From positions 1-46,616 of the forward strand of contig SHYV01000002.1 of assembly GCA_009692605.1 (NCBI GenBank): 46,616 nucleotides of DNA, written 5' to 3'. Under the pieces are notes generated by a model. That model saw nothing but the letters and a program-made list of their open reading frames with translations. It ran no database searches and was not told the origin of the DNA. Source of the DNA: Myxococcales bacterium. Lineage in GTDB: Bacteria; Myxococcota_A; UBA796; SXON01. A program made the translations under genes and the position numbers. Below are positions 7,432-31,323 of the stretch, piece after piece (within the stretch, counting starts at the first letter, position 1; each line of letters opens with the position of its first letter).

Positions 7432-8312
7432 ATGACACTCCTCGTCATGACAATGCTCCTCTCTTCCGCCGCTGCCACCATCTGGGTCGTGGATCCTGAC
7501 GGGGGCGGTGATGCCACCACGCTGGCCGACGGCTTCGCGCTGCTCTCGGACGGCGACACACTCGAGGTTCGGGCGGGGGTGTGCGCGGAGGCGGGCTTGT
7601 CTTCCCAAGCGACGGATATCCGCATCGTCGGCGCTGGGGCCGGACAGACCATCCTTGACGGGACGACGGCCGCGGAGGACGACTATGAAGGCTTTGGGAT
7701 CGAGGCCCGGCCTGCGTTGATGAGCTGCGGAGACCTGACGGTGCAGTCCTGCGAGTTTTCAGAGAATGAGGCAGCATGTCTCCGTCCATGGCAGACAACC
7801 TGTGGGTGTACGAGCGTGGCCCGTATGGCAGGCTCTGGACTGTGGAGCACAACACGTTCGTCGGTGGGGGGGTGAAGTTGGGCTACTCTGATGAGAACGC
7901 CAACGATCTCGCGCTCGACGTGACGAACAACGTGTTCATCGCGGTCGATCCGGACGGCCGCGCGTGCCCCATCGACGGCGATCTCGACGGCGTCGCCCTC
8001 CCCGACGCCGGTGCGTACGAGCTTGACCCCGACTCCGACGGCGACGGTCACATCACGCTCGCGCTCTCCGGCGATGACTGCGACGCCGCCGCCGCCTACC
8101 CCGGCGCTGCGGACACCTGCGGAGACGCCATCGATCAGGACTGCGACGGGTCCGACCTCGTCTGCCCGGAGGACACCGGCACCGAGGCTTCGCCAAAGCG
8201 GCACGGATGCGCGACGGCTGGGGCGAGGCCGCTCGCCTCGTTCGCAGCCTTGGCTTTTCTGCTCACTCGGGTTCGGCGTCGCCCTATAAGGCTGCCGCGC
8301 GTGTGCGGCTGA
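7432..8312 (+). pseudogene. Exported right-handed beta-helix protein with a MopE-like Cys-rich metal-binding motif and a MYXO-CTERM-like tail; the reading frame breaks near 7767-7780
   Basis: ORF 7432..7875 supplies the signal peptide and beta-helix start (MTLLVMTMLLSSAAATIWVVDPDGGGDATTLADGFALLSDGDTLEVRAG...). It turns into R/S/T-rich junk after about 7775. ORF 7776..8312 is in another frame, open from 7770. It continues with beta-helix sequence (WTVEHNTFVGGG...LDVTNNVFIAV), then DDCDAAAAYPGAADTCGDAIDQDCDGSD, then GCATAG + hydrophobic stretch + RVRRR. This second ORF has no signal peptide of its own. The alternative reading is two separate CDS. Confidence 0.55.
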
Positions 8313-16186: not shown

Positions 16187-17584
16187 CTACCTGGACAAGC
16201 CGCACTGGAGGACGATGCTGTTGGTTACTGGCAGATCGGCGTTTTGCGGGATCACCTGCTCGAAGGTGAGGCCGGTGAACGCCGTGGTCGCCGGTGGGCG
16301 GTCCCGCTTGCCGCCACGAGCCGGTGTGGCGCGCTTGCCCTCGGTGTTCCAGTAGAGATTGGCGCCCACGTCGAGGTACCAGTTCTGGTCGAAGGAGGTC
16401 GAGTCGGTCGGGCCGTCCGAGATGAACTTGGGATCGAACCCGGAGTAGCTGGCGACCAGTGAGACGTGATCGGTGACCGCGGTCCGCACCGGGATGTCAC
16501 CCGCCGCTGCGAAGAGCCAGGCGATGCGGTCGTCGTCCACTCCGCCAGCGCTGACCCGGCTCATGACGCCTTCGGTGACGATCCGGGGGCTCACCGAGGG
16601 CAAGTAGCGCCCGGCGTTGAGCTCAAGCGAGAAGGCTCCGTGCGTATGCCCGTCGGTGCTGTTGCCGGCGTGCATGACCGAGCCGCGCACCTCGACCACG
16701 TTGATGGGGGCGAGGGTGAGCCTCGCGACGATGTCCTTGGCCGCCGTTCCGTCCAGCTTGGTTGCGCCGGAGCCGTTGATCAACTGCAAGTCGAGCGCGG
16801 CCATGTCCTTGTACGCCACCCGCCAGCCGAGCCCGATGTCGGTGCCGGGGGAGATCCCGAAGCGCCGCTCGGGCTCCATGTAGGCAAGCTGGCCTCCGAG
16901 GAAGAACTTGTCGTAGTCGCTGTAGTCGTCGCGAAGCCCGAACGCGGTGTGGAGGACGCCCACACGCAGCGACTGGCGCAGGGCCTTGCCGGTGTGGAGC
17001 CTCAGGGTGAGCTCGTCCACCGCGGGGTTCAAGATGGCCTCGTCGCTGCTGACCACGAGCGTGTCTCCCAGCGCCTCGGGGTCAGAGGGCGGGCTCTCGG
17101 GGACCGCCGCGAACTCCATGGAAGCGCGGAGCGCGAGCCAGGGGGTGGCGTCAAAGTCGACGCGGGGGCGAAGGTGGGCGATCGTGAAGGTCGGCCGTGT
17201 GGGGTTGTCCGCGTAGACGGGGTCAGCTCCCCGCTCGAGGTGTTCGGCGACGAAGTTGATCTGGAAGTCGCCGCCGAGACGGAAGAGCTCCTCGGGCCGG
17301 GCGTCCGCTTTGGGGGGGCGCCGGTCACCCTGAGGGGGGCGGTCACCCTGAGGGGGGCGATCACCCTGAGGGGGACGGTCACCCGGGGGGGGGCGGTCAC
17401 CCGGGGGGGGGCGGGCGCCCGGGGGGAGGCGTCGTCCGGCCTGATCGAGCGGCGGGCGGTTGACGGGCTGGGGCTCTGCGCTCGCGGGCTCCGACGGGGC
17501 TGAGGTCGGGGTAGCGTCAGGCACAGTCGGTTCGTCCGACGCGACAGCGAGAGGCGCCAGGAGCAAGGTGTACAGGGTGAACAT
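16187..17584 (-). CDS. Outer-membrane beta-barrel (porin-like) protein with an N-terminal Pro-rich GDRPP(P/Q) repeat
   Basis: A signal peptide is present (MFTLYTLLLAPLAVASD). A Pro-rich linker with PPGDRPPPGDRPPQGDRPPQGDRPPQGDRRPP follows. After that come alternating amphipathic strands (FQINFVAE, LRASMEFAA, LRLHTG, VGVLHTAFG, LGWRVAY, VARLTLAP, FSLELNAG...). Its stop abuts the stop of the convergent methyltransferase gene with 0 nt between them. Confidence 0.7.
   Translation of the reverse strand: MFTLYTLLLAPLAVASDEPTVPDATPTSAPSEPASAEPQPVNRPPLDQAGRRLPPGARPPPGDRPPPGDRPPQGDRPPQGDRPPQGDRRPPKADARPEELFRLGGDFQINFVAEHLERGADPVYADNPTRPTFTIAHLRPRVDFDATPWLALRASMEFAAVPESPPSDPEALGDTLVVSSDEAILNPAVDELTLRLHTGKALRQSLRVGVLHTAFGLRDDYSDYDKFFLGGQLAYMEPERRFGISPGTDIGLGWRVAYKDMAALDLQLINGSGATKLDGTAAKDIVARLTLAPINVVEVRGSVMHAGNSTDGHTHGAFSLELNAGRYLPSVSPRIVTEGVMSRVSAGGVDDDRIAWLFAAAGDIPVRTAVTDHVSLVASYSGFDPKFISDGPTDSTSFDQNWYLDVGANLYWNTEGKRATPARGGKRDRPPATTAFTGLTFEQVIPQNADLPVTNSIVLQCGLSR
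17323..17430. repeat. In-frame tandem repeat of 5-6 x 18 bp with G7-G9 homopolymer runs
   Basis: The units are GGTCACCCTGAGGGGGGC x2, GATCACCCTGAGGGGGAC, GGTCACCCGGGGGGGGGC x2, then a degenerate copy. Confidence 0.9.
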
Positions 17585-17658
17585 CTGGGTAATGTAGCGC
17601 CGATGTAGACCTGGCGCGAGGGAGCGGTGGAGTCGGCCGCCCCGCAGGGATCAACGCC

Positions 17659-18117
17659 TCAGTTGAACTCGCCGGTGTCGGGGTCCGGCTCAAGCTCCGG
17701 CTCGTGGCCGGCGGCGATGACCCCGCCGTGGTGGAGCGTCATCCTCCACCCGTCGTCGGTCCGCAGGAACACGTTCGTGCAGGCTACGCGCGCCTCCTGA
17801 CCGAAGGAGCCGGATGCCGTCGGAGCGCCGCTGACGTTCTCGATCAGGTGGACCTTCGCGGCGCCGCCGTAGAGGTCGACCCGCAGGTCGGAGATGCGAA
17901 TGGAGAGTCGGTCGCCCGAGGCGAACAGCCTCCGCCAAGAATTCTGCACGTTGATGGGACCAATGACCGCCTCCGTCCACGGGTGGATGCAGGTGTCGCC
18001 ATCGTGGCCCGCCCAGACGAGGTCCATGCGGAGCGCGTCGCCGGCGACAAACGCGCGGTAGAAGGCATCATTGGCGGCCAGCACACCCCGGGTGTCGGCG
18101 TCGGAGGGCTCGGACAT
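17659..18117 (-). CDS. SnoaL-like / NTF2-fold (DUF4440-type) protein
   Basis: The protein is 152 aa. ANDAFYRAFVAGDALRMDLVW......IHPW...GP..V..SW......, then RVACTNVFLRTDDGWRMTLHHGG, is a typical NTF2-like cone pattern. Confidence 0.7.
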   Translation of the reverse strand: MSEPSDADTRGVLAANDAFYRAFVAGDALRMDLVWAGHDGDTCIHPWTEAVIGPINVQNSWRRLFASGDRLSIRISDLRVDLYGGAAKVHLIENVSGAPTASGSFGQEARVACTNVFLRTDDGWRMTLHHGGVIAAGHEPELEPDPDTGEFN

Positions 18118-18135
18118 GCCGGCCGCTTATCCGGC

Positions 18136-18159
18136 CGCGGCCCCGACCGCGGCCCCGAC
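18136..18159. repeat. 2 x 12-bp perfect tandem CGCGGCCCCGAC in a 47-bp divergent intergenic region
   Basis: Seen directly (18136-18147, 18148-18159), between the SnoaL-like start (18117, minus) and the GH31 start (18165, plus). Confidence 0.9.
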
Positions 18160-18164
18160 AGCGG

Positions 18165-20513
18165 ATGTTAACGAGGCCGATGCGGCCGTCATCCGTCTCC
18201 CTTCAGCTCACACTTTGGGGAGCGTTGCTGACCGGCTGCTCCAACGCGCGAACCATCGGTCCGTGGGATCTGGTCCCGACCGGGACCGGGTTCGACATCT
18301 CCCGGTCGGATGGCAGCGAGTTTGTCGGGTCCCTCACCATCGAGATTGGGATTGGCGAGGCGAACGTGGAGTTCCAGGCCGGGGCGTACCGATTCGGCGG
18401 CGAGTCCACCGAGTGGAAGGCCCTGATCCCTTCCGGCGGGCCGAGTGGGCGGGACCCCGCGGTCACCTGGAAGCTGGAGGATGAGCACGGTGACGACTAC
18501 GGGCTGGTCTCGGCCGCTGAGCTACGGGACGGCATCCTCGCCGTCGCGGTCGTCGCCAACGATCCAGAGGTGAACCGGACGCGATTTTCGGTGCCTTGCA
18601 CCGGAAATGACCACTTCGCGGGCTTCGGCCAGCACGCGCAGGACGTCGACCACGTCGGGGAAGCCTTCCCGCTATGGGTGAGCGAGCCGGGCATCGGGAA
18701 GACTGGCGACGAGACGCAGGGCGACGACTGGTTCCTGACCGGTACGAAGCACGCATCCAGCTACCCCGACCCGTTCTTCATCAAGCCGGATCCGCTCGGC
18801 GTCGAGATCGTGACCGAGAGCCGCGTAGAGGTCGACCTCTGCACGGGCGATGACTGGTCCGTGGCCGCGTGGTCGGGGGCCACTGAGATCCTGTTCTACG
18901 ACGTGACGACGCCGATGGAGGCCGTGCAGAAGCACGCGCTTCGGAGCGGGTCGCCGGTGCTGCCTCCGGCGTGGGCCTTCGCGCCGTGGAACGACGCGGT
19001 CGGCGGTGAGGATCGCGTCAAGCACGTCGCCAGCGTGCTGCGGGAGGCCGGCGCGACCGCGGGCGTCATCTGGACCGAAGACTGGAAGGGGGGCGAAGAC
19101 AGCGTCTACGGCTACCATCTAATCCCCAGTTGGGACGTCGACGAGACCCTGTACCCGGACGCCGCCGGGCTGGCCTCGGAGCTTCGTGCCAACGGCTTTG
19201 GTTGGTTCGCCTACTTCCAGCCTTTTTTGGTTGAGGGCACAGATGCATGGGAAGAAGCAGGGGAGTTTGCTATTCGCAGGGAGGACGGTTCGACCTACAC
19301 CTTTGTGGGGATGACCTTCGAGACCACCACGGTGCTCGATCTCACGCGGGAGGATGCGCGCGACTGGGCCAGGGGAAAGATGCAGGCCGCGCTGGACCTT
19401 GGCTTCACGGGGTGGATGGCGGACTTCGCAGAGTGGCTCCCCACCGACGCCGTGCTGGCCGGGGCGGACGCGCTGGCCGCTCACAACGCCTACCCGCTGT
19501 GGTGGCAGGAGACCAACGCCGCCGTGCTCAGCGGCCCTGCCGAATCCAGCGGCGGCGAATCCAGCGGCGGCGAGACCACAGGGGTCCAGTTCACCCGCTC
19601 GGGCTGGACCGGCTCGCCTACGTTGTCGCCGATCGGTTGGGCCGGTGATCAACGCACCAGCTTCGACGCCGACGACGGGTTTCCGACGGTGATCCCGATG
19701 GGGATCGGGGCCGGAATCTCCGGGCTTCCGCTCTACACGCACGACATCGGCGGCTACCAGTCGATCGGGAACGAACCGTCTACCAAGGAGCTGTGGTGGC
19801 GGTGGTGCACCCTCGGGGCGATGTCGCCCATCATGCGCACCCACCACGGCGCGTTCATGGCGGAAAACTGGCAGTTCGACAGCGATGCGGAGACCCTCGC
19901 GCTGTACGTGACCTGGTCACGCGTCCACGGGCGGATGGCACCCTACCGGAGGGGTTTGGCGGTTGAGGCGCAGCGTCAGGGCACGCCTCTGGTCCGCGCG
20001 CCGTTCCTGACATGGCCAGACGAGGACTGGGCGAGGACCGATGCCTGGCTCCTCGGGGACCTTCTGGTCGCGCCAGTGATGGAGGAAGGCGCGGTGTCGA
20101 GGCGCGTGGACCTGCCGGCGGCGGTGGGCTGGTTCGATTTCTGGACCGGGGAGGCCGCGCAGACCGGCACGTTTGACGTCCCGCTGGACAGCATCGCCGT
20201 GTTCGCCCCGGTCGGGGCGATCGTCCCGATGTACACGGACATCGCCGATACGCTGTTCGACGGCCCGCTCTCGGGCCTCGTGACCGCGGACGAGGTCGAT
20301 ACTGGCCGCACCGTGCACGTGTTCGCTTCAGGCGGGGCCTCGGTCTCCGGGCGGTTCGAGGAGGCGGACGGGACCACGTACACGGTGACGGGCACAGCCA
20401 CGGGGCCTGCCGAAGCAACGGTGCGGACCGCCTCGGGAGACGTCGTCGTCGCCGGGTTGACGGTGCAGATCCGCGGGCCAGTGGAGCGGACCTACGCGGT
20501 GGTCGTCCGTTGA
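18165..20513 (+). CDS. Glycoside hydrolase family 31 lipoprotein (alpha-glucosidase/xylosidase-like)
   Basis: The signal peptide has a lipobox (LWGALLTGCS). The nucleophile motif is GWMADFAEWLPTD (cf. xDFGE of GH31). The acid/base region is YTHDIGGYQS, followed by MRTHHG. The length and order fit GH31. Confidence 0.85.
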   Translation: MLTRPMRPSSVSLQLTLWGALLTGCSNARTIGPWDLVPTGTGFDISRSDGSEFVGSLTIEIGIGEANVEFQAGAYRFGGESTEWKALIPSGGPSGRDPAVTWKLEDEHGDDYGLVSAAELRDGILAVAVVANDPEVNRTRFSVPCTGNDHFAGFGQHAQDVDHVGEAFPLWVSEPGIGKTGDETQGDDWFLTGTKHASSYPDPFFIKPDPLGVEIVTESRVEVDLCTGDDWSVAAWSGATEILFYDVTTPMEAVQKHALRSGSPVLPPAWAFAPWNDAVGGEDRVKHVASVLREAGATAGVIWTEDWKGGEDSVYGYHLIPSWDVDETLYPDAAGLASELRANGFGWFAYFQPFLVEGTDAWEEAGEFAIRREDGSTYTFVGMTFETTTVLDLTREDARDWARGKMQAALDLGFTGWMADFAEWLPTDAVLAGADALAAHNAYPLWWQETNAAVLSGPAESSGGESSGGETTGVQFTRSGWTGSPTLSPIGWAGDQRTSFDADDGFPTVIPMGIGAGISGLPLYTHDIGGYQSIGNEPSTKELWWRWCTLGAMSPIMRTHHGAFMAENWQFDSDAETLALYVTWSRVHGRMAPYRRGLAVEAQRQGTPLVRAPFLTWPDEDWARTDAWLLGDLLVAPVMEEGAVSRRVDLPAAVGWFDFWTGEAAQTGTFDVPLDSIAVFAPVGAIVPMYTDIADTLFDGPLSGLVTADEVDTGRTVHVFASGGASVSGRFEEADGTTYTVTGTATGPAEATVRTASGDVVVAGLTVQIRGPVERTYAVVVR

Positions 20514-21745
20514 CCGATCGCCGGTCCCCTGAACGCCGCATCGCGGTTCTGCCGGATCTCGGGCTATGTTGGTTGGATTCCCCGGTACCCTGCTTGTTCG
20601 TCGTTCTGGCCATTCTAGGTTGTCATCCTTTCGAAGACTCAAGTTCAAAAGGCGATAGTGGCAGTTCCCCTGTTCCGCCCGGCCCAGCTGCACTTACGCT
20701 GGGGGAAGCCTGCAACCCCGCCGATGACCTCTGCGACCAGGGCACCGCCTGCTGCACCGAGTGCTGCGAGGGCGACAACACCCCGGTCTGCACCACCACG
20801 ATCAACGAGGCGTGCCCGCTGCCCGACCTCTCTGCGGATCCGCCGCGTTTGCAGGACGGGCTCGTCGAGGAGTGGGCCTACTTTGACGCGGATAACTGCG
20901 CGATCATCGAGGGTTGCGTTCTGGCGAGCGGCTGGCGTCGCCTGCTGGAGTTTGACTTGACCACCCCCAACACCGGCACCGCGGACGTCAAGTTCGGCGA
21001 CCCGAGCAACAACCCGCTCTTCCACTACTCGGAGTGCCACGACCACTTCCACTTCGACGGATATGCAAGGTACTCCCTGCTCGATGGAGTGACGGAGGTC
21101 GCGAAGGGTCACAAGCAGGCGTTCTGCCTCCTGGACTTTGAGGCGTGGACCGAGGATGCGAGGCCGCGGCCCCTGTACACCTGTGAGCGGCAGGGGATCT
21201 CGGCGGGGTGGGCGGACACTTACGGCGGCCACCTCGACTGCCAGTGGATCGACATCACCGACGTGCCTGCGGGCAGCTACACGGTGCACGCCACGGTGAA
21301 CGTCGACAGCATCATCCCCGAGCTGGACTACGAAAACAACGTGGCGGACGCTACGTGGACCGTAGTTGACCCCGTTGATCTCCCGGCGGTGACCGACCCC
21401 TGCGATCCGCCTGCCGGTCGTATTGACGTCGGTCAGGGGGAGGTCAGGGACTGCGGCTGGAGCGTGGCCGGGAACTACACCTGCGCGCCCGGTGAGCCGG
21501 TTGATGCCTCCTGCAGTGGCGGCTGCGCCGACAGCTGCGTGGGCGACCCGGTCATGCGGGTCTGCGAGGGCGCCGACAACCCCTGTTATTCATTCCAAGC
21601 GCTGGGCAGCGACGACGATTCCTGCGGGACGTCAGCTTGCCCGGTCGTGAGCGTGACCTGCCCGGCCGGCGGGGTGGTGACCGTGCTCACGGCCTCGTGG
21701 AAGTCCTCCATCGGGCCGGCCACCTGTGATCCGTTAGTGGAGTAG
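20510..21745 (+). CDS. Lysyl oxidase (LOX)-domain copper amine oxidase homologue, probable lipoprotein, with Cys-rich N- and C-terminal extensions
   Basis: [34 protein letters not shown] and [37 protein letters not shown]...PELDYENNV match by eye human LOX [34 protein letters not shown] and [30 protein letters not shown]...PESDYTNNV. The TTG start overlaps the GH31 stop (TTGA). The lipobox is LAILGC. The exact start is uncertain. Confidence 0.85.
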   Translation: [411 protein letters not shown]

Positions 21746-21748
21746 ATC

Positions 21749-23107
21749 ATGGTAATTTCCATGTTACTCAGTCTGTTATCCGCGGTGGGGCCGGCCCTCG
21801 CGGCGACGACCACCGCTGCCGACTGCCTCGAATGCTGCCAGCAAGCCGGGCTGACCTCGTGCGGCACCGACGTCTTCGTCAATGGCGAGGGAAGCAAGGT
21901 TCAAAAGGAGGGTAGCTCCTGGAGGGTGTCGGGGCTGTACGTTTTGTCCTGTGACGGTCGTGGTTTTTTTGACGACGGGCGCACTGCGCTCTTCTCTTCC
22001 CCGCCGTCCGCTGGAGACCTGGCCAAGGCGTATTCCGCGCAGTGGGCGTGCTTTCGGCAATCGTGTCAGCTCCCGGTCGGCCTTTGTCTGGACGCAGGGT
22101 CAGGTCACGTGTCGGTGTGTGACACCGGGGCCGCTCCGTCAGGGGCTGCGTTCCGGGGCGCGCCGGGTCCTCGACCGGGCCGGTCCACCGCGGCGCCGCT
22201 GCCGGTCTCGGCCGCCGGGCCGGTCGGCGCGCGGCCTGGTTCGTCGGGAGGCCTATCGGTGGTGGTCGCGGGGAGGACGCTCACGGTGGAGCGGGCTCCG
22301 GCTCAGGCGGCACCGGCGGGGGCCGCCGTCGCGCTTCCTGCCCCAGCTCCCGCGCTCCCCCCGGCCGCGCCTCCCCGCGCCGCTCCCGCGCTCCCTCCCG
22401 CGCTCCCTCCCGCGCTCCCTCCCGCGCTCCCTCCCGCGAAGCCCAAGAGCACCGTGCTCTTCGATGACCTCGATGACGACGAGATCCTCGCCGAGCTTCG
22501 GGGCGAGACGAAGCCCAGCGCCGTAGCAGCGGCCCCCCCCCCGGCGGCCCCGTCGGTCTGGACCCCTTCCGCCACCGCGACGTATACGCCGACCGGACCC
22601 GCTACCGGGGGCCCGCCCGCGGGGCCCACAGCGGTGTACTCACCGGCACCCTCGTCCGCTGCTGCGTCGAGCGCAGCGGCGATCACCCAGCTCACCGAGG
22701 GCCTGCCCCGGGACCCCCCGGAGCAGTGCCAGCCTCCCCCCGACGCGCTGCGCAGCGAGTCCCGGAAGCAGGTGATGACCGGGGATGATCTCCGGCTCGC
22801 CAAGGATGCTTCGGGTGCCATCCAGAAGTACCGGGCTGCGATCTCGATGGACTCCTGCAACGGGTACGGCTGGATTGGCCTTGGGGAGTCAGCCATCTTG
22901 CTCGGTCGCCCCGATCTGGCGGTGCGAACGCTGCGCAACGCGACCATGCTCATGCCGCAGCACTACGGTGCCTGGCTGGAGCTCGGACAGGCATATGAGT
23001 CGATTAATGAGGTAGAAGCCGCTATTAGCTCCTATCAGCGTGCTTTGGCGGTGAAGCCTGGGCTCGCCGGGGCGGTCGACGGCCTCGCGCGCCTCGGCGT
23101 GCGATGA
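21749..23107 (+). CDS. Secreted protein with a Cys-rich N-domain, a long Pro/Ala-rich linker (ALPP x4) and C-terminal TPR repeats
   Basis: A signal peptide is present (MVISMLLSLLSAVGPALAA), followed by CLECCQQAGLTSCG... A Pro/Ala-rich segment of roughly 200 aa follows. The C-terminus is TPR-like (GWIGLGESAILLGRPDLAVRTLRNATMLMPQHYGAWLELGQAYESINEVEAAISSYQRALAVKP). Confidence 0.7.
   Translation: MVISMLLSLLSAVGPALAATTTAADCLECCQQAGLTSCGTDVFVNGEGSKVQKEGSSWRVSGLYVLSCDGRGFFDDGRTALFSSPPSAGDLAKAYSAQWACFRQSCQLPVGLCLDAGSGHVSVCDTGAAPSGAAFRGAPGPRPGRSTAAPLPVSAAGPVGARPGSSGGLSVVVAGRTLTVERAPAQAAPAGAAVALPAPAPALPPAAPPRAAPALPPALPPALPPALPPAKPKSTVLFDDLDDDEILAELRGETKPSAVAAAPPPAAPSVWTPSATATYTPTGPATGGPPAGPTAVYSPAPSSAAASSAAAITQLTEGLPRDPPEQCQPPPDALRSESRKQVMTGDDLRLAKDASGAIQKYRAAISMDSCNGYGWIGLGESAILLGRPDLAVRTLRNATMLMPQHYGAWLELGQAYESINEVEAAISSYQRALAVKPGLAGAVDGLARLGVR
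22388..22435. repeat. In-frame perfect tandem repeat of 4 x 12 bp, GCGCTCCCTCCC (ALPP x4)
   Basis: Counted directly. The units lie at 22388, 22400, 22412 and 22424. Confidence 0.9.
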
Positions 23108-23730
23108 CTCCAGCCGTCTGGCACATGCTGCTCGGCGGAGCGTTCGTCCCGTCGGGCGTCGGCGCGCTCGCGTGGGATGACGCCGACCAGCTCTCTGGCA
23201 CCCTCGCGGGTGAATTCGACGGCGTCCTTCGCCCGCCGATCACGGTCTACGCCGGTTGGTTCGACGACCGGAACGCGCTGCTGCTGGACTTCGCGATCGT
23301 GCGATTCACAACATCCACCTGGGCCGACACCCACTCGTTCGACGGCGTTGGATCGGCGCGGCTCGGGGCGGACTACCGGCGCTACCTGCCGTCGGCGCCG
23401 GTTGGGGATGGCGCTGGCCACATCGACATGTACGGGGATCTCGGTGTTTACGGCGTGCTGCCCGCCGCCGCCAACTCCTCCGACGCGTACACCGAGGAGG
23501 ATCAGGCGAGCGCAGACGAGGCATCCGGTGAGCTCCGGGCTCGGATTGGCGGGGTTGGGGCACAGTTTGGGCTTGGCGCTGGCTACCGGATCGGAGGCGT
23601 GGCGGGCGTCACGTTGGGGGTCCGGGGGCTGATGGTCATCCACCGCACTCAGGCGACGCTGGAGACAGGCACGACCTTCGGCTACGTGATCCTGCCGGAG
23701 GGTGCGCTCACGCTGGAGTTCAGGCGGTGA
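23104..23730 (+). CDS. Small exported beta-barrel-like protein (208 aa), hypothetical
   Basis: Its start forms an ATGA overlap with the upstream stop. The N-terminus is hydrophobic. The C-terminal half has Gly-rich alternating strands (GAQFGLGAGYRIGGVAGVTLGVRGLMVIH...GALTLEFRR), reminiscent of small OMP barrels. Confidence 0.5.
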   Translation: MTPAVWHMLLGGAFVPSGVGALAWDDADQLSGTLAGEFDGVLRPPITVYAGWFDDRNALLLDFAIVRFTTSTWADTHSFDGVGSARLGADYRRYLPSAPVGDGAGHIDMYGDLGVYGVLPAAANSSDAYTEEDQASADEASGELRARIGGVGAQFGLGAGYRIGGVAGVTLGVRGLMVIHRTQATLETGTTFGYVILPEGALTLEFRR

Positions 23731-24905
23731 GCACCCATGTTGGGTGGCCAGCCCCGGGAGCGCTGATCCTGACGGCGGCGCTGGTGCACCTCGGGTCCCC
23801 GGCCCACGCCGGAGCGCCTTCGGACGCGCTGGCCCAAACGGGGCGCTTCTCACCGGACCACCCGGAGTCCGCGTACCACTTTGCGGACGAGGTTTTTGGC
23901 GTGATTGCGGACGCGGCGGCGGTCGGTCCGGGCGTGATCGACGGGTTCACGTTCGGGCGCTCGCTGGAAGGGCGAGAGCTTCGGGCCTTCGCTGTACGCG
24001 ATCCCGCGTTTCCCGTCTTCCGTCGCCTGCTCCTGATCGCCAATATCCACGCGCTGGAGTGGATCCCGACCGAAGACGCGCTCGCGTTCTTGCTTGAGTA
24101 CGCTGCGCACCCGGTCCCAGGCGTTGAGCTTGTTGTGGTGCCGATCGTGAACCCGGACGGGCGCGCCAGAGTGGAGGCCGACCTGCGCGCTGGGCGCAAC
24201 CTCTATCGGCGCGGGAACTCAGCCTACGTCGATCTCAACCGCGACTGGTTCGTACACCGCGACAGTCCGGCGATCTGGAAGGCCCTGCTCCCTGGCCTGT
24301 ACACCACTTCGGCCTCCCCGACGTCTCAGCCCGAGACCGTGGCTATCGACCAGCTCCTTTGCCCGGATGCGGACGCCCGGAGTCGCGCGCGCGCCCAGAC
24401 TTACGGCTCCGATGGTCGCCCGCTGCCGGCAGTTTATGGTCTCGCCGTCGGAGCCGAATGTTACCCAGGAAGCGGTGAGTACGGCATCGTGCCCTTCTCC
24501 GCCTTCCTCTCGCTCCACAGCTTCGGCGGGTTCATCTACTACCCGTGGGCCGGCCGTTGGAGGCGACCCGACGTGGTCGAGGGCGACTGGCGGCGCTATC
24601 AGGCGGTCGCCGAGGCGATGCAGGCGGCGATGGGGGCCCACGCCTATCGGCCTCGCCAGCTCGCGCGGTGGGGGTTCTTCTTCCGTGGGCTGGGCATGGA
24701 GATCGACCATGCCTACGGGCAGTACGGAATTCCGTCGCTCCTCGTCGAGACCACGCGCTCTGGTCTGGAGCGGCCGGCGGACCTGGCCACCTACTTCCGA
24801 TGGTACAACCCCCGCACGCCGGACCGGCACGTGCGGGCTGACGTGGACATGCTGTGGGCCTGGGTGACCGCGGTCGGTGAGGTCTGGCCGACAGGGGGAC
24901 AATAA
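23727..24905 (+). CDS. M14-family zinc carboxypeptidase (secreted)
   Basis: The GTG start overlaps the upstream stop (GTGA). A signal peptide is present (...ALILTAALVHLGSPAHA). Zinc and catalytic motifs are present: IANIHALEW (HxxE), VVPIVNPDGR, YVDLNRDW and FLSLHSFGGFIYYPW. Confidence 0.8.
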   Translation: MSTHVGWPAPGALILTAALVHLGSPAHAGAPSDALAQTGRFSPDHPESAYHFADEVFGVIADAAAVGPGVIDGFTFGRSLEGRELRAFAVRDPAFPVFRRLLLIANIHALEWIPTEDALAFLLEYAAHPVPGVELVVVPIVNPDGRARVEADLRAGRNLYRRGNSAYVDLNRDWFVHRDSPAIWKALLPGLYTTSASPTSQPETVAIDQLLCPDADARSRARAQTYGSDGRPLPAVYGLAVGAECYPGSGEYGIVPFSAFLSLHSFGGFIYYPWAGRWRRPDVVEGDWRRYQAVAEAMQAAMGAHAYRPRQLARWGFFFRGLGMEIDHAYGQYGIPSLLVETTRSGLERPADLATYFRWYNPRTPDRHVRADVDMLWAWVTAVGEVWPTGGQ

Positions 24906-24992
24906 ACAACCCGTGACAGCCCGCGCCCTTGCGGCTTCGGTCCGTTCGACTAAGTGGGCCGGCGGTGTGTGGTCTGTCCTGTCCCGCCCGAC

Positions 24993-25017
24993 CTGGTTCG
25001 CCGCTCTGGTTCGCCGC
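24993..25017. repeat. Direct repeat of 2 x 12 bp, CTGGTTCGCCGC, separated by 1 nt, upstream of the ABC operon
   Basis: Seen directly (24993-25004, 25006-25017), 63-87 nt upstream of ATG 25080. A regulatory role is not shown. Confidence 0.85.
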
Positions 25018-25079
25018 CCCGCCGCCCGCCCTCGGGTTGGCGGCAAATCCCAACCTTCTTCTGTTACCCCGGAACGCCC

Positions 25080-26021
25080 ATGATCACGGTTGAAGGCCTC
25101 TCGCACTGGTACGGCGACCGCCGCGCCGTCGAGGGCCTCTCGTTCACCATCCAGCAGAACGAGTGCGTCGGCCTGCTCGGCCTCAACGGCGCGGGTAAGT
25201 CCACGACGATGAAGGTGCTCGCCGGCCTGCTCGTGCCCACCGGCGGCACGGTCACCATCGACGGTGCTGACCTCGTCAACGCGGGCGCAGAGTTCCGCGC
25301 CCGGATCGGGTACCTGCCCGAGGACCCGCCGCTCTACAAAGAGATGACCGTTCGCGAGTTCGTTAGCTACTGCGGCCAACTCAAGGGCATGAAGGCTCGG
25401 GATGTGGAGGCTCGGCTCGACGGTGTGCTCGCCCTCGCGCAGCTCACTGCTCGGCAGCATCAGGTCATTGGTGAGCTCTCACACGGCTACCGCAAGCGCT
25501 GCGGCATCGCTCAGGCCATCATCCACAAGCCGAGCGTCGTGATCCTGGACGAGCCGATCTCTGGCCTCGACCCAAAGCAGATCTTCGAGATGCGTCAGGT
25601 CATCCGCGACCTCGCGAAGGACGCGACGGTGATCATCAGCTCGCACATCCTCTCCGAGATCTCCGAGACCTGCGACCGGCTCATCGTGCTGAACGGTGGC
25701 CGCATCGTGGCGGCAGGAACGGAGGCGGAGCTCGCCGCCCGGGCGGGTGGTGCGAGTCGCGTGACATTGGTGGTGCGGGGCAGCGATGCGGCGATCACTG
25801 CCGCTCTCGCTAAGGCGGGTGCGGTTGGCGCCGATCGGCGTGAGGAGGCGGGGGGCCTCACGCGCGTTCATGTGACGCTTCCAACTGTGTCCAACGGCGA
25901 CTCCCGAGAGAATCTGGTGCGCGCCCTCGTCGAGGGCGGAATCGGGCTGCGTCGCATGATTGAAGATGAGGGAGAGCTCGAGCAGATCTTCCTCGGCCTG
26001 ACCAAGGAGAGTGCACAATGA
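25080..26021 (+). CDS. ABC transporter ATP-binding protein (GldA/ABC-2 type, 313 aa)
   Basis: The internal ATG gives MITVEGLSHWYGDRRAVEGLSF. Motifs are Walker A GLNGAGKSTT, Q-loop, signature LSHGYRKRCGIAQA, Walker B VVILDEPISGLD and H-loop SSHIL. Confidence 0.9.
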   Translation: MITVEGLSHWYGDRRAVEGLSFTIQQNECVGLLGLNGAGKSTTMKVLAGLLVPTGGTVTIDGADLVNAGAEFRARIGYLPEDPPLYKEMTVREFVSYCGQLKGMKARDVEARLDGVLALAQLTARQHQVIGELSHGYRKRCGIAQAIIHKPSVVILDEPISGLDPKQIFEMRQVIRDLAKDATVIISSHILSEISETCDRLIVLNGGRIVAAGTEAELAARAGGASRVTLVVRGSDAAITAALAKAGAVGADRREEAGGLTRVHVTLPTVSNGDSRENLVRALVEGGIGLRRMIEDEGELEQIFLGLTKESAQ

Positions 26022-26743
26022 GCGGCATTTGGCTGATCGCGCGCCGCGATTTCTCGGCGTTCATCAACACGTGGTGGGGCTGCGTCATCCTGTCGTTGAC
26101 GCTGCTCATCGACGGTGTTTTGTTTCAGGCCGTCGCGATGACCGCGACTCCCCGGTATTCGGCGGACGTCCTGACCGACTTCTTCTTCCTCACCGGCGGG
26201 GTGGTGCTGATCGCCGGGGTGTTCACGACGATGCGGAGCTTCGCAGAGGAGCGGCAGACCGGCACCATGGTGCTCATCGAGTCCTCGCCGCTGTCGGAGA
26301 CGCAGGCCGTGATGGGCAAGTACCTGTCCGGCTTGATGTTTCTAGCCCTGCTTCTGGGTCTCACCGCCTACATGCCCGGCATGATCTTCGTCAACGGGAA
26401 GATCAGCGAGCAGCAGATCGCGGTGGGGTACCTTGGGGTGTTCCTGATGGGAGCCGCCGGCATCGCCATTGGGACTTGGGCGTCCGCCATCTCGCGCAAC
26501 CAGCTGTTGTCGCTGGTCATCGCGGCGGTCATCACCGTCTTTTTCGTGCTGTGCTGGATGCTCTCGCGGGTGCTCGATCCGCCGTTCAAGGGGTTGTTCG
26601 CCTACATGGCCTTCTTTGACAAGCAGTTCCAACCCTTTCAGGAGGGGCGGATCAACACCGAGGGCATCGTGTTCTTCGTATCGGTCAGCTTCGCCTTCCT
26701 CCTGCTCGCTACCCGCTCGCTGATCGCCCGGAGGTGGGAATGA
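26018..26743 (+). CDS. ABC-2 type transporter permease (GldF-like)
   Basis: Its start forms an ATGA overlap with the ATPase stop. It has six predicted hydrophobic helices. FAEERQTGTMVLIESSPLS is typical of ABC-2/GldF permeases. Confidence 0.8.
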   Translation: MSGIWLIARRDFSAFINTWWGCVILSLTLLIDGVLFQAVAMTATPRYSADVLTDFFFLTGGVVLIAGVFTTMRSFAEERQTGTMVLIESSPLSETQAVMGKYLSGLMFLALLLGLTAYMPGMIFVNGKISEQQIAVGYLGVFLMGAAGIAIGTWASAISRNQLLSLVIAAVITVFFVLCWMLSRVLDPPFKGLFAYMAFFDKQFQPFQEGRINTEGIVFFVSVSFAFLLLATRSLIARRWE

Positions 26744-28584
26744 GCTCCGCTGGCATGCTTTACGTGATCGGGAGCTTCCTGATCTTCCTCGCCGAGCGCA
26801 TGTTCTCGGGCAACGACGCGGTGCGGTGGCCGCTCGATCTGCTCGGCGTTGCGCTGGTGGTGCTCGCCCTCGTTGGTCGCGCACGCAGCTGGTCCCGTCA
26901 TCCGAAGGCGACCCAGCTTTCGCTGGGTTTCTTCGGCCTCTCGATGTCCTCGGTGCTGTTCTGCGTGGCGGCTTCGAAGGACTGCATAGCGATGTGCGGC
27001 CTTGACGCCGAGACTGCCAAGCACGTGGTCGTCGGGCTGCAGGCGATGGTCCCCCTCGTCTGGTTCGTGGGTGCCCTCCCTGCGCTGGCGATCGACGCGA
27101 CGCTGTCAGCGAGCCCGCACAGCGTGCATCCCGGTCGGCTCCGGGCTGCCCTTGAGGGAGGCCTCGCCGTGGCGCTGGGTCTCGCGATGCTCTTCCCGCT
27201 CAACTATCTGGCTTCGGAGTACAACAAGCGGGTCGACTACGGGTTTTTTAAGACCACCTCGGTGGGGACCTCCACCCGCGCTGCCGTGGACAGCCTCACC
27301 GCGCCTATTCGAGTGGTGCTGTTCTTCCCCCCGTCAAGCGAGGTGCTCCGTGAGGTGCGCCCGTACTTCGACGATCTGGCGGGAGCCAATTTGAGCGTCG
27401 AGGTGATGGATCAGACCATGGACCCCGAGCAGGCCAAGGCGTGGAAGGTCAAGGACAACGGGACCATCGTCATCGTGAAGGGCGAGGGCGACGACGAGCA
27501 GACCGAGTCGGTCAAGCTGGAAGACGACATTGACAAGGCCAAGAAGGACCTGCGTAAGCTGGACAGCAAGGTGCAGACCGCGCTGCTCAAGATCTCCCGG
27601 GACAAGCGTACGGTGTACTTCACTGTCGGCCACGAGGAGCTCTACTGGAAGAGCGCGGCGGACGATCTTTCGAACCTCGACTTCGCCAAGAAGATGCTTG
27701 AAGGCCTGAACCTGAAGGTCAAGGAGCTCAGCGTGGCGACCGGTCTCGCGCAGGCCGTGCCCGACGACGCCGCCATGGTGTTCATCGTTGGGCCGAAGCG
27801 GTTGTTCCTCCCCGAGGAGATCAAGGCGCTTTCCGACTATCGCGAGCGTGGGGGCGCGTTGTTCATCGCGATGGAGCCGTCCAGCGGTCCGGATGATCTC
27901 AGCGACCCGGCGGTCGCAGCGCTCGCTGGGGTCGGATTCGGCGATGTCGCCCTGCTCTCCGACAAAGCCTTCCTTCGGGTGACGGGCGGACCGAGCGACC
28001 GGGCGTTTGTCGGGACCAACAAGTACAGCTCCCATGAGTCGGTGACGACGCTCGGCAAGAACTCGGCGCAGGCCACGTTCATCGCGCCGGGTGTCGGTGC
28101 GCTGCTGGAGCTTCAGGAGCACGCTGGTAAGGTCACCAACGTGTTGAAGGGAATGCCTGAGTGGTGGGCGGACGGCAACGGCAACTACGAGTTTGACAAG
28201 GACGCTCCGGCGGCCGGTCTGGACGGGGTCTTGCCGCCGCCAGCCGAGAAACGTGGCGGCTACGAGATCGCCAGCGTGGCGACTGGTCCGGCCGAGGGCG
28301 GTAAAGAGTGGCGGGCGGCCATCATCGGCGACTCGACGTGGATGTCCAACGGCATCCTCAAGAATCAGGCCAACGCCGTCTATCTGGTCTCCACCGTCGG
28401 CTGGCTGACTCAGGATCCCGCGCTCACCGGGGAGACCGAGACGGAAGAGGACATCAAGATCCAGCATACAAAGGAGGGCGAGGCGATGTGGTTCTACGGG
28501 ACCAGCCTGCTGATGCCGACTCTGGTGCTGCTCGCCGGCATGCTTCGCGTTCGGGCGCGCCGCGCCAAGGGAAGTGAGAAATGA
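26740..28584 (+). CDS. GldG-like ABC-transport auxiliary protein with an extra polytopic N-terminal region
   Basis: ATG 26740 is preceded by GGAGG and overlaps the upstream stop (ATGA). GTG 26734 is an alternative start. About five N-terminal TM helices are predicted. An ABC_transp_aux-like body follows (IRVVLFFPPSSEVL...LSVEVMDQTMDPEQAKAWKVKDNGTIVIV...). A C-terminal TM helix is present (MWFYGTSLLMPTLVLLAGML). Confidence 0.8.
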   Translation: MSSAGMLYVIGSFLIFLAERMFSGNDAVRWPLDLLGVALVVLALVGRARSWSRHPKATQLSLGFFGLSMSSVLFCVAASKDCIAMCGLDAETAKHVVVGLQAMVPLVWFVGALPALAIDATLSASPHSVHPGRLRAALEGGLAVALGLAMLFPLNYLASEYNKRVDYGFFKTTSVGTSTRAAVDSLTAPIRVVLFFPPSSEVLREVRPYFDDLAGANLSVEVMDQTMDPEQAKAWKVKDNGTIVIVKGEGDDEQTESVKLEDDIDKAKKDLRKLDSKVQTALLKISRDKRTVYFTVGHEELYWKSAADDLSNLDFAKKMLEGLNLKVKELSVATGLAQAVPDDAAMVFIVGPKRLFLPEEIKALSDYRERGGALFIAMEPSSGPDDLSDPAVAALAGVGFGDVALLSDKAFLRVTGGPSDRAFVGTNKYSSHESVTTLGKNSAQATFIAPGVGALLELQEHAGKVTNVLKGMPEWWADGNGNYEFDKDAPAAGLDGVLPPPAEKRGGYEIASVATGPAEGGKEWRAAIIGDSTWMSNGILKNQANAVYLVSTVGWLTQDPALTGETETEEDIKIQHTKEGEAMWFYGTSLLMPTLVLLAGMLRVRARRAKGSEK

Positions 28585-29795
28585 GGTCAGTCGCGCTGTT
28601 TGGGACGATTCTCGTCGTCTCTCTTGCATTCTCGTGGGTGAGGTACACCGGGGGTGAGGAGAAGGTCAAGGAGGGCACGATCCTCATGGACGGGAAGAAG
28701 GAAGACCTGCAGCGGGCGAAGTACACCTCGCCCGACCTCACCGTGGAGTACGAGGTCCGAAGCGATGGCATCGGCTCCTACGGCTGGCTCACGGTGTCCG
28801 AGAACAAGAAGAAGAAGGTCCCCGATCCGGCCAAGCCCGGCTCGATGATGGACTCGACCGAGCTCAAGCTCTCCAAGTTCAAGGCGGGCAGCGGGAATGA
28901 CAAGCTCGTGGACGGGCTGGCGCCGCTCATGGCAGTACGCGCGCTCGAGGATGTGCCGGCCGACAAGATCGAGTCGTTCGGCCTGACCGCACCCGATACC
29001 ACGCTCTCCGTCACCATCGGCGGCGCCGAGCGCGCCTTCTTGGTCGGCGGCGAGACCTACGGCACGAAGGACCGCTATGTGAAGGACGCCTTGTCTGGGC
29101 GGATCTATGTCGTGGACGACGAGGTGTTCAAGTCCCTCAAGTTCGCAGCGACGCGGCTCCCGGAGCGCGCTCTCAGCGATCGCAAGCCAGAGGAGATCAC
29201 CGGCGTCTCGCTCGGGCAGGGGGCAAGCACCGCCTCCTGGACCCACAAGAACAAGGACGACAAGGCCGCCGCGCACTGGCAGCGTGACGGCGCCCTTCCT
29301 ACAGCTCCGACCGATGGGGCCACCCCCCTGGAAGGTGAGGCTCCGGCGGCGGACCCCGGCAAGGACGTCACGTTCGCCAACTGGGTCGAGGCTGCGCTCA
29401 AGCTGAAGTCCACGGCGTACGTTCAGGATGGCGACGAGCCCGCCACGCTCGAAGCCGCGTTCGATCTCACCCTTCGGGCCGAGGGCAAGCCGGACCAGAC
29501 GATCCACCTTCTCCACGACGGGGATGATTGGTATGCGCGCAGCGAGTTCACACGGGGGCTGGTCAAGATCTCCAAGGGGCCTGCGGAAGACAGCTACTCG
29601 GACGTGGACGACATCCTCGCCGGCAAGACCCCGCCGCCGAAGGCGAAGCCGGCCAAGCCGGCTGGCGCGCCCACGAAGGCTCCTGGGGGCGACAAGCCCG
29701 ATGCTGGGCCGGGCGGTCGCCCCCCCGGCGGGCCCTCCGGGATGATGCCACGGTCTCCGGGGATGATGCCAAAGCCCGGAAAGCCTGCGGGGTAG
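28581..29795 (+). CDS. DUF4340-like protein, N-terminally anchored (usual partner of GldG-type transporters), with a Pro/Lys-rich tail
   Basis: Its start forms an ATGA overlap. It has an N-terminal TM helix (ALFGTILVVSLAFSW). The body has IESFGLTAPDTTLSVTIGGAERAFLVGGETYGTKDRYV....GRIYVVDDEVF. Position and architecture fit DUF4340. Confidence 0.65.
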   Translation: MRSVALFGTILVVSLAFSWVRYTGGEEKVKEGTILMDGKKEDLQRAKYTSPDLTVEYEVRSDGIGSYGWLTVSENKKKKVPDPAKPGSMMDSTELKLSKFKAGSGNDKLVDGLAPLMAVRALEDVPADKIESFGLTAPDTTLSVTIGGAERAFLVGGETYGTKDRYVKDALSGRIYVVDDEVFKSLKFAATRLPERALSDRKPEEITGVSLGQGASTASWTHKNKDDKAAAHWQRDGALPTAPTDGATPLEGEAPAADPGKDVTFANWVEAALKLKSTAYVQDGDEPATLEAAFDLTLRAEGKPDQTIHLLHDGDDWYARSEFTRGLVKISKGPAEDSYSDVDDILAGKTPPPKAKPAKPAGAPTKAPGGDKPDAGPGGRPPGGPSGMMPRSPGMMPKPGKPAG

Positions 29796-29808
29796 CGGTA
29801 CAGGCTAT

Positions 29809-31323
29809 ATGTGCCGGATGGTTACCTTTTTCCGGGCCGGTTGGACGTCCGGAGTGCTGCTGTCCCTTGTCACTTCGGCGGGCTGCGGCGCGATTACCCT
29901 ACGGGAGGGGGAGCGGCCTCCGGGCGGTGGCCCGCCTCCGATCGTCCTGATCTCGATCGACACCTTGCGGCCGGATCGGGTCGGAGCCTACTCGCCGCGT
30001 ACGAGCACGTTGACGCCCAACCTGGATGCCTTCGCTGATGAGGCGGTGGTCTTCGACCACGCGTACAGCCAGGCCATCCAGACCGCGCCCTCGCACGCGA
30101 GCGTCTTCACCAGCGTGTACCCGAGCGAACAGACGGGCGCTGACAACCAGACGGTCCTCGATGCGTCCCATCCCACAATGGCGCAGGTGCTTGAGGCGTA
30201 TGGGTACAAGACCGGCGCGTTCGTCGCGGGTGGCGACCTTTCGCCCCATCGCCGGTTGAACCGAGGCTTTGGGGTGTACGAGTCGCCGAGGGACTTCGGC
30301 AGCTTCTATCACACCACGCCCAGGGCTATGGCGTGGTTGGATCATATCGACCTTTCAAGTCCATATTTCATGTTCGTCCACAGCTACGACGTCCATTCGA
30401 TTTACCTCAAGCCCACGCCCTTCGGGTACCTGCACGCCGATGTGACCTACGACGGGGCGGGTCAGGTCGCGGCGCGTACCGCCACCGAGCGTGTGATCAA
30501 CGGGTTCATGTACCCGGACTTCGACGGTCTCCTTGACGCTCAGGTGAACCTGCTGCGACCATGGGCGGCGGCCAGCAAGGCTGAAGTTGCGTGGAAGTTG
30601 TCCACGGGAGAGGTCCCGATCCCGGTGACTCCACGCGATCTGGAGCACGTGGGCCAGATGTACGACGGCGCCGTCTCCTACGCGGACGCGATGTTCGGGG
30701 CGCTGATGGCGGGCATCGAGCAGCGCGGCCAGCTGGATCGGGCGATCATCATCGTCATGTCGGATCATGGCGAGCAGCTCGGCGAGCAGGGCATCTTCGG
30801 GCACTGCTGCGGGATCGGCGACGAGGAGACGCACGCCGTCATGATGGTACGGCTGCCCCGCGGGGAGCACGGTGGACGACACGTCGGGGGGTTCGTTGAG
30901 CTGCTCGACGTCTTGCCCACGGTGGCTGATCTCGTCGGGGCGCGCGCGCCCGCAGACATCGATGGGCGCAGCTTCGCGGCGGCGGTGCGGGACGAGCCGT
31001 TTCAGGGCCGGCCGTACGCGCACAGCGAGGGCTCGCAGCTCTATAGAGTGGTCAGCGTGCGGGGCCCGGAGGGCAGGCTGACGTACGCCGGCTTGCCGCC
31101 GTCGTCCGCTCACTTGCCTGGCATCGTGGCTGCGGCGCGGTTGGACGGCCCCGGGTTTCTGGCGTCGGCCGGGTTGGCGCCAGAGGGGCGCCGGGCGCTG
31201 CGGGAGGAGATGGTGGGGTGGTTGAAGTCGCTGACGCCACCGCCGGATGCGCGGAGCGCGCCGTTGCCTGACAGCCTGCGAAGGTCGCTGCGGGAGCACG
31301 GGTACTTCGAGGTGGCGGAGTGA
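29809..31323 (+). CDS. Sulfatase-like hydrolase/transferase (alkaline-phosphatase superfamily) lipoprotein
   Basis: The lipobox is LVTSAGC. Motifs are IVLISIDTLRPDRVGAY, AYSQAIQTAPSHASVFTSVYPSE and IIIVMSDHGEQLGEQGIFGH. The position of the usual C/S-x-P-x-R formylglycine motif reads T-A-P-S-H. Confidence 0.8.
   Translation: MCRMVTFFRAGWTSGVLLSLVTSAGCGAITLREGERPPGGGPPPIVLISIDTLRPDRVGAYSPRTSTLTPNLDAFADEAVVFDHAYSQAIQTAPSHASVFTSVYPSEQTGADNQTVLDASHPTMAQVLEAYGYKTGAFVAGGDLSPHRRLNRGFGVYESPRDFGSFYHTTPRAMAWLDHIDLSSPYFMFVHSYDVHSIYLKPTPFGYLHADVTYDGAGQVAARTATERVINGFMYPDFDGLLDAQVNLLRPWAAASKAEVAWKLSTGEVPIPVTPRDLEHVGQMYDGAVSYADAMFGALMAGIEQRGQLDRAIIIVMSDHGEQLGEQGIFGHCCGIGDEETHAVMMVRLPRGEHGGRHVGGFVELLDVLPTVADLVGARAPADIDGRSFAAAVRDEPFQGRPYAHSEGSQLYRVVSVRGPEGRLTYAGLPPSSAHLPGIVAAARLDGPGFLASAGLAPEGRRALREEMVGWLKSLTPPPDARSAPLPDSLRRSLREHGYFEVAE

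Follow-up and report, generated by a model that had tools for sequence, protein, structure and literature searches.

Gene layout of the locus

We analyzed a window of 46,616 nucleotides (nt) from a Myxococcales bacterium (contig SHYV01000002.1 of assembly GCA_009692605.1), in which a gene for a bacterial lysyl oxidase (LOX) lies within a string of genes for predicted envelope proteins. The G+C content was about 68% throughout the window, and the region showed no compositional break. The list of open reading frames (ORFs) and their translations gave five plus-strand genes in a row, encoding a glycoside hydrolase family 31 (GH31) lipoprotein, the LOX lipoprotein, a secreted protein with a Cys-rich domain, a Pro/Ala-rich linker and TPR repeats (the Cys/TPR protein), a small predicted outer-membrane beta-barrel, and an M14 zinc carboxypeptidase (Table 1). 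A preliminary description of this DNA had regarded these five genes as a tightly coupled exported operon built around LOX, which was followed 175 bp downstream by an ABC/GldG operon.

The positions of the five genes, their junctions and the distance to the ABC operon were confirmed by the ORFs and by reading the sequence. The GH31 and LOX genes met in TTGA at 20510-20513, and LOX and the Cys/TPR gene were separated by 3 nt at 21746-21748 (stop codon TAG, then atc, then an ATG ending at 21751). The Cys/TPR and barrel genes overlapped in ATGA at 23104-23107, and the barrel and M14 genes in GTGA at 23727-23730. The ABC ATPase gene started with ATG at 25080, which was 175 nt past the M14 stop codon. 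All five genes shared one strand with short or overlapping junctions, the GH31-LOX junction being uncertain. The start of LOX was ambiguous, with TTG at 20510 as the most upstream candidate and TTG at 20573 also in frame; depending on the start, the GH31-LOX spacing in the window is 0 to about 60 nt, in comparison with 41-76 nt in relatives. Because of this second in-frame TTG and the spacer in relatives, the TTGA overlap may not be real. Four-base overlaps of start and stop codons are ordinary in compact high-GC operons, and the genes of the downstream ABC operon overlapped likewise (26018/26021, 26734/26743 and 28581/28584). The tight coupling claimed for the five genes is therefore real as to their common direction and close packing, yet it is normal for this genome.

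A consensus scan of positions 17400-30200, which is weak for this kind of organism, detected no sigma-70-like promoter site on the plus strand. Terminator-like sites in the same region lay only within genes, and none was found in the intergenic spacers. The common strand, the spacers and their freedom from terminator-like sites make co-transcription of the five genes probable in this lineage. Signal peptides and lipoboxes were assessed by eye. All five products look extracytoplasmic, as had been proposed, but the N-termini of the barrel protein (MTPAVWHMLLGGAFVPSGVGALA) and of M14, although hydrophobic, lacked a charged n-region.

Table 1. Genes of the conserved block in the window, with their positions, strands and supporting matches.
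Feature	Position	Strand	Evidence and remarks
SnoaL_3-domain gene	17659-18117	-	Pfam SnoaL_3 8.9e-19; divergent from GH31; adjoins GH31 in L001/L007, L002, L090 and the ERZ1426856 contig
GH31 lipoprotein, YihQ-like clade	18165-20513	+	Pfam GH31 TIM barrel 8.4e-40 and C-terminal domain 1.5e-13
Lysyl oxidase (LOX) lipoprotein	20510-21745	+	Pfam PF01186 8.8e-34
Secreted Cys-domain/Pro-Ala-linker/TPR protein	21749-23107	+	Pfam TPR families 1e-9 to 3e-4
Small outer-membrane beta-barrel (predicted)	23104-23730	+	AlphaFold2 model; no Pfam family
M14 zinc carboxypeptidase	23727-24905	+	Pfam PF00246 6.8e-18
GldA-like ABC ATPase	25080-26021	+	TIGR03522 4.9e-77
GldF-like ABC-2 permease	26018-26743	+	TIGR03518 4.9e-27; Pfam ABC2_membrane families
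GldG-like ABC auxiliary protein	26734-28584	+	Pfam ABC_transp_aux 2.4e-7, below cut-off; kept after ABC2 in M14 loci
DUF4340 protein, last gene of the conserved block	28581-29795	+	Pfam DUF4340 1.4e-11; position kept in M14 loci

Neighborhoods of LOX genes in close and distant relatives

Neighborhoods were compared at loci anchored on LOX, on M14 and on the barrel gene. The LOX set consisted of 80 loci, taken with as much as 10 kb of flanking sequence per side, from a collection with one genome per species, and of further loci from metagenomes. The titles of the LOX locus records named Sorangium, Sandaracinaceae, Polyangiales, Kofleriaceae, Haliangiales and Bradymonadia. Four LOX-bearing contigs of metagenome-assembled genomes (MAGs; L008, L010, L011 and L025) were titled Bifidobacterium breve, Enterobacteriaceae and Klebsiella, which is implausible, and these labels are not trustworthy.

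LOX shared less than 60% identity with that of the window in 79 loci; of these, 63 extended 3 kb or more upstream and 64 extended 4 kb or more downstream. Neither tblastn nor profile hidden Markov models (HMMs) of the families found the N-domain of the Cys/TPR protein, the barrel or M14 near LOX in any of these 79 loci. A GH31 gene was found near LOX in a single one of them, about 3 kb away on the opposite strand. Clustering of all neighboring ORFs revealed no partner family of LOX beyond lineage-specific blocks, for example in Sorangium genomes. In the next-closest LOX lineage (L005, 10001-14048; 55% identity), a DnaE2-like polymerase gene stood before LOX, and a 490-amino-acid (aa) protein without Pfam match and a DAO-family FAD oxidoreductase came after it.

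The full arrangement was found only where LOX was at least 64% identical, namely in L001/L007 (68%), in L002/L008 (72%) and on the ERZ1426856 contig. The collinear block in these close relatives comprised ten genes, from SnoaL to DUF4340, and not five; an unannotated gene for a protein of 433-465 aa beyond SnoaL was also collinear in most of the loci. The spacer between LOX and the Cys/TPR gene, 3 nt in the window, was 6-9 nt in the relatives, and the ATGA and GTGA overlaps were kept. The genes outside the block varied. Downstream of DUF4340, the window had a sulfatase, the L001 type MoxR, L002/L090 GST, and ERZ1426856 a protein of 740 aa; upstream of the block, L002 had cytochromes and ZnuA, and the window and L090 had a methyltransferase. 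The conservation of LOX neighbors had been set beforehand as a test of the proposed operon, and synteny failed beyond the closest relatives.

A related lineage without LOX

A further locus (L090), which was found via M14, carried SnoaL, GH31, Cys/TPR, barrel, M14, ABC, ABC2, GldG and DUF4340 genes in this order, with no LOX at the locus and 41 nt from the GH31 stop to the Cys/TPR start. This LOX-less arrangement was present in assemblies of two separate samples (L090/L173/L174, L174 being from the second sample; BUCK21 samples ERZ18631664 and ERZ18648440), and 11 contigs carried that barrel protein. For all nine shared proteins, L090 and the LOX-bearing L002 were closer to each other than L002 was to the window or to L007. 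ABC2 of L002 was 95% identical to that of L090, 79% to that of L007 and 82% to that of the window, and the corresponding values for GldG were 91%, 79% and 80%.

When the 41-nt spacer of L090 was aligned locally to the LOX regions of the window, L002 and L007, no LOX remnant emerged, the scores being no better than those of shuffles, so that the spacer by itself is compatible with both deletion and insertion. Since L090 is closer to L002 for all nine shared proteins, the parsimonious reading is that LOX was lost in the L090 lineage, which is nested among LOX-bearing ones. LOX is dispensable to the arrangement. This nested lineage, together with the 79 more distant LOX loci lacking the Cys/TPR, barrel and M14 genes, contradicts the proposal that the operon is built around LOX.

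M14 carboxypeptidase and the downstream ABC genes

A metagenome scan with the M14 alignment gave 80 loci, which together with L091 and L092 made 82 M14 loci. In L091 and L092 (M14 46-51% identical), M14 stood directly before ABC-ABC2-GldG-DUF4340, and the other four genes were absent. Among the 56 loci with at least 1.5 kb downstream, an ABC ATPase gene lay 3' of M14, on the same strand and within 5 kb, in 39 (M14 39-51% identical), and in one more it overlapped the end of the match. The ATPase was within 600 nt of M14 in 32 of those 39 loci, and ABC2, the GldG-like protein and DUF4340 were usually next. Upstream of M14, neither the barrel nor the Cys/TPR protein was found in any of the 42 loci with at least 2.5 kb on that side, and GH31 and LOX were also absent from the M14-ABC loci.

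The ATPase and permease of the window were most similar to GldA and GldF of the gliding ABC transporter of Bacteroidota, and a protein with a weak match to the GldG-type family ABC_transp_aux came next. Unlike the Bacteroidota system, the scores were below the equivalog cut-offs (259 bits against 402 for the GldA model TIGR03522, and 95.5 bits against 288.5 for the GldF model TIGR03518), and the unit was coupled to DUF4340 and had M14 in front. These comparisons indicate that the long-standing partner of M14 is the downstream GldA/GldF/GldG-like ABC and DUF4340 operon, and M14, the GldA/F-like and GldG-like genes and DUF4340 look like a widely conserved five-gene unit. A narrow keyword search of the literature found no description of an association between M14 and a GldG-type ABC transporter. 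The five genes from GH31 to M14 do not form a unit of their own, as had been assumed: they are part of the ten-gene block, and M14 goes with the ABC/GldG-like operon that had been treated as separate.

Features of the encoded proteins

The identities assigned to the GH31, LOX, TPR and M14 products were all borne out by Pfam matches. No NCBIfam family matched LOX, the barrel protein, M14 or the GldG-like protein.

LOX passed HMM significance, with 117.4 bits for PF01186 against a gathering score of 20.4. The protein consists of a lipobox, a Cys-rich N-terminal stretch, the LOX catalytic domain and a Cys-rich C-terminal domain. Its catalytic core aligned to human LOXL2 (PDB 5ZE3) at 4.5e-23. The copper triad C-H177-D-H179-F-H181 aligned to C-H-R-H-Y-H of LOXL2, and K202 (GHKQAFC) and Y238 (DTY) aligned to GHKASFC and DMY; H177, H179, H181, K202 and Y238 were invariant in an alignment of 22 homologues, including those of Sorangium. 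The Lys of GHKASFC and the Tyr of DMY are the residues that form lysyl tyrosylquinone (LTQ) in LOXL2. In the same alignment ten Cys residues of the C-terminal domain (C298, C315, C325, C335, C343, C352, C359, C377, C384 and C406) were invariant, and the lipobox Cys was kept in at least 90% of the homologues. The window LOX thus resembles animal LOX/LOXL2 in keeping all copper and LTQ residues in its core, but it is a lipoprotein and has neither SRCR domains nor a propeptide. No collagen or elastin substrate for LOX is known in bacteria.

Bacterial LOX proteins, including those of "Deltaproteobacteria" and Sorangium with a Cys-rich C-terminal domain, have already been described, their native function being unknown (PMC4448552, PMC6452851). 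The Cys-rich non-catalytic domain past the catalytic core has likewise been described, and beta-aminopropionitrile-sensitive amine oxidase activity was shown for an archaeal LOX homologue (PMC6452851). The window LOX shares with the Myxococcota type (Sorangium cellulosum WP_012233967.1; Grau-Bove et al., 2015, PMC4448552; Pestov et al., 2019, PMC6452851) the PF01186 domain, the His triad, the LTQ Lys and Tyr, the Cys-rich C-terminal domain and a secretion or lipoprotein signal, and its identity with Sorangium proteins that bear the name "lysyl oxidase family protein" was 44-46%. Judged by these features, it is a typical representative of a family already known, the Myxococcota-type LOX proteins that carry a Cys-rich domain at the C-terminus. 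Unlike the Sorangium-type proteins, it is encoded within a co-directional string of envelope genes, and this in the present lineage only. It is also shorter than the Sorangium paralogues and lacks their extra N-terminal domain. Among the aligned proteins P0055, P0056, P0057 and P0101, this extra domain, of about 100 aa, was seen in Sorangium/Polyangiaceae LOX paralogues, and the Cys-rich C-terminal domain was present twice in P0055, a Myxococcota LOX. A small ORF about 12 kb upstream of LOX (7776-8312) matched a putative copper-binding motif of the MopE type (Pfam 6.5e-5, below cut-off).

M14 matched PF00246 with 65.7 bits against a cut-off of 21.6, and its matches in the PDB were carboxypeptidases B, A and T. 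The residues H108-A-L-E111 (HxxE), N171-R172, H264 and E341 were invariant among 22 homologues. By analogy to carboxypeptidase A, we take HxxE and the distal His to be the zinc ligands, Asn-Arg to bind the substrate and the Glu to be catalytic. The window protein also carried a private insert of about 45 aa with two Cys (aa ~213-257; ~24363-24497), which none of the 21 aligned homologues had, not even the closest relatives.

GH31 scored 380 bits with NCBIfam PRK10426, which was below the cut-off of 553, and its best PDB matches were 8R56, 5OHS and 5AED. The lipobox L-T-G-C was kept in four relatives. Like the YihQ-type GH31 sulfoquinovosidases 5AED and 5OHS, which are among the best-matching solved structures, the protein kept the catalytic motifs WMADF and W(A/G)GDQ. 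Unlike them, it had YGyH-liP-sW in place of FG(k/a)R-xxW-xW, the motif of 5AED, 5OHS, 5OHY, 8R56 and 6PNR, so that Arg was replaced by His and Trp by Pro. This Arg and Trp belong to the sulfonate-binding pocket of YihQ. A function as sulfoquinovosidase, suggested by the nearest solved structures and by sulfatase and arylsulfotransferase genes elsewhere in the window, was rejected because both pocket residues are replaced; GH31 is probably an active glycosidase of another specificity. The sulfatase gene lies at 29809-31323 and the arylsulfotransferase-like gene at 5745-7100.

The third protein contained a Cys-rich N-domain (about aa 20-140), a Pro/Ala-rich disordered linker and three to four TPR repeats (about aa 304-448). 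In the AlphaFold2 (AF2) model, the predicted local distance difference test (pLDDT) score exceeded 90 in the two end domains and stayed under 60 in the linker. An A-L-A signal-peptide site was plausible. Foldseek with the full model matched TPR proteins, which swamped any match of the N-domain. The family comprised 69 representative clusters below 1e-30, and the N-domain was common to 68 of the 70 matches of 250-500 aa. Within the otherwise variable linker, K-P-K and an acidic segment, LFDDLDDDEILAELRG, were conserved in four relatives (aa 224-250).

Neither the fourth protein nor its 71 homologues matched a Pfam domain. Its AF2 model (pLDDT 83, predicted template modeling score 0.77) showed long antiparallel strands and one helix, and the top Foldseek matches were OpcA, Ail, OmpW, OmpX and the OmpA transmembrane domain, with a probability of 1.00 and template modeling (TM) scores of 0.3-0.46. 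The protein, which had been called barrel-like, is thus modeled as a small outer-membrane beta-barrel whose antiparallel strands close. Its predicted fold and size resemble those of small 8- to 10-stranded outer-membrane barrels (OmpX/Ail, OmpW, the OmpA transmembrane domain and OpcA); unlike these, it belongs to no sequence family, aligns to them only at the TM-scores given, and has an amphipathic helix (aa 131-148) between strands. The C-terminus was LEFRR, with Phe at -3 and not at the terminal position. Barrel homologues of at most 54% identity (L087, L088 and L089) stood alone in several lineages, beside the F-type ATP synthase operon and genes for TRAP or sulfate transporters, and in the MAG CAYWGD01, LOX and a barrel homologue were on separate contigs.

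Discussion

On balance, we favor the reading that the window holds a lineage-restricted, co-directional string of envelope genes, which grew by accretion upstream of an older operon and is not a LOX-centered machine. The old core would consist of the M14 carboxypeptidase, the GldA/GldF-like ABC-2 transporter, the GldG-like auxiliary protein and DUF4340. Directly upstream of this core, the GH31, Cys/TPR and barrel genes would have come to lie in a single narrow freshwater lineage, probably of Myxococcota. LOX, which stands between the GH31 and Cys/TPR genes in most, not all, members, would be a variable member of the string. The enzyme is most likely an envelope-tethered copper/LTQ amine oxidase, which would convert primary amines (peptidyl lysine or free) to aldehydes and H2O2. 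The comparative evidence gave no positive support to a LOX-centered cross-linking module, and LOX appears to have no dedicated partner among these genes. It is true, as the preliminary description stated, that no characterized bacterial system combines LOX with these partners, and this is mainly so because the partnership seems to be a lineage-specific juxtaposition.

Several observations weigh against this reading. The Cys/TPR, barrel and M14 genes overlap or abut in every member of the block and the spacer after LOX is only 3-9 nt, so that co-transcription of LOX is very probable and a functional tie could have arisen locally. The block is intact within the narrow clade while the genes outside differ, which is some evidence that the linkage has been selected there. 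Moreover, the LOX-less state is represented by one lineage only, in which the absence of LOX was seen at the locus. The packing on one strand, with its short LOX spacer and conserved overlaps, and the constancy of the block between variable flanks would also fit a single envelope-remodeling module of this clade, extending from GH31 to M14 or to DUF4340, with LOX as a working but accessory member. In such a module LOX might, for example, oxidize lysines of the Pro/Ala/Lys-rich linker of the Cys/TPR protein, M14 might trim C-termini, and the barrel might be an outer-membrane anchor or conduit. The extracytoplasmic look of all products, the invariance of K-P-K in the linkers of four relatives and the lack of intrinsic-terminator-like sites in the intergenic spacers agree with this possibility, but we consider it unlikely: the genes do not co-occur outside close relatives, the whole block is also kept where LOX is missing, the Cys/TPR family extends far beyond the block, which itself was found in few closely related lineages, and the partnership of M14 points downstream and not to LOX. 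Far less probable still is the specific proposal that LOX was recruited into an envelope operon, where it would oxidize lysines of the K-P-K-containing linker and cross-link the Cys/TPR protein into a cell-surface or matrix scaffold.

The favored history of accretion with loss of LOX in the L090 lineage can also be turned around, with L090 as the ancestral state and LOX as a recent insertion, by horizontal transfer, at a pre-existing GH31-Cys/TPR junction. LOX genes are thought to be horizontally mobile among prokaryotes (PMC4448552), and the 41-nt spacer of L090 is clean, with no detectable LOX remnant. However, in each of the nine shared proteins L090 sides with L002, which has LOX, so that at least two independent gains at one junction would be required, and the identity of LOX among block members (68-75%) matches that of the neighboring GH31 (68-71%); we therefore give an insertion little credence. 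A comparably small chance is accorded to the view that the five genes are not one transcription unit and that internal promoters drive LOX, or the Cys/TPR, barrel and M14 genes, separately, the adjacency then having no regulatory meaning. Such promoters could be accommodated in the spacer of 41-76 nt before LOX in relatives and in the 175 nt before the ABC genes, but the scan, weak as it is for this kind of organism, gave no sigma-70-like site on the plus strand of the region, and separate transcription of the Cys/TPR, barrel and M14 genes is unlikely given that their stops and starts overlap.

It is still an open question which native role lysyl oxidases play in prokaryotes (PMC4448552, PMC6452851). 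A conserved LOX operon would have pointed to substrates, but the neighborhood gives no such lead, because no partner is common to the LOX genes of about 80 related species and the arrangement survives without LOX. Should the linker of the Cys/TPR protein nevertheless prove to be oxidized, a native protein substrate would be known for a prokaryotic LOX for the first time. The comparison also yielded definitions of two families, the secreted Cys-domain/linker/TPR protein and the small outer-membrane barrel, and a natural pair of otherwise collinear loci with and without LOX that can be compared. In addition, it brought to light what appears to be a widely conserved, uncharacterized link of an M14 carboxypeptidase with a GldA/F/G-like ABC and DUF4340 operon.

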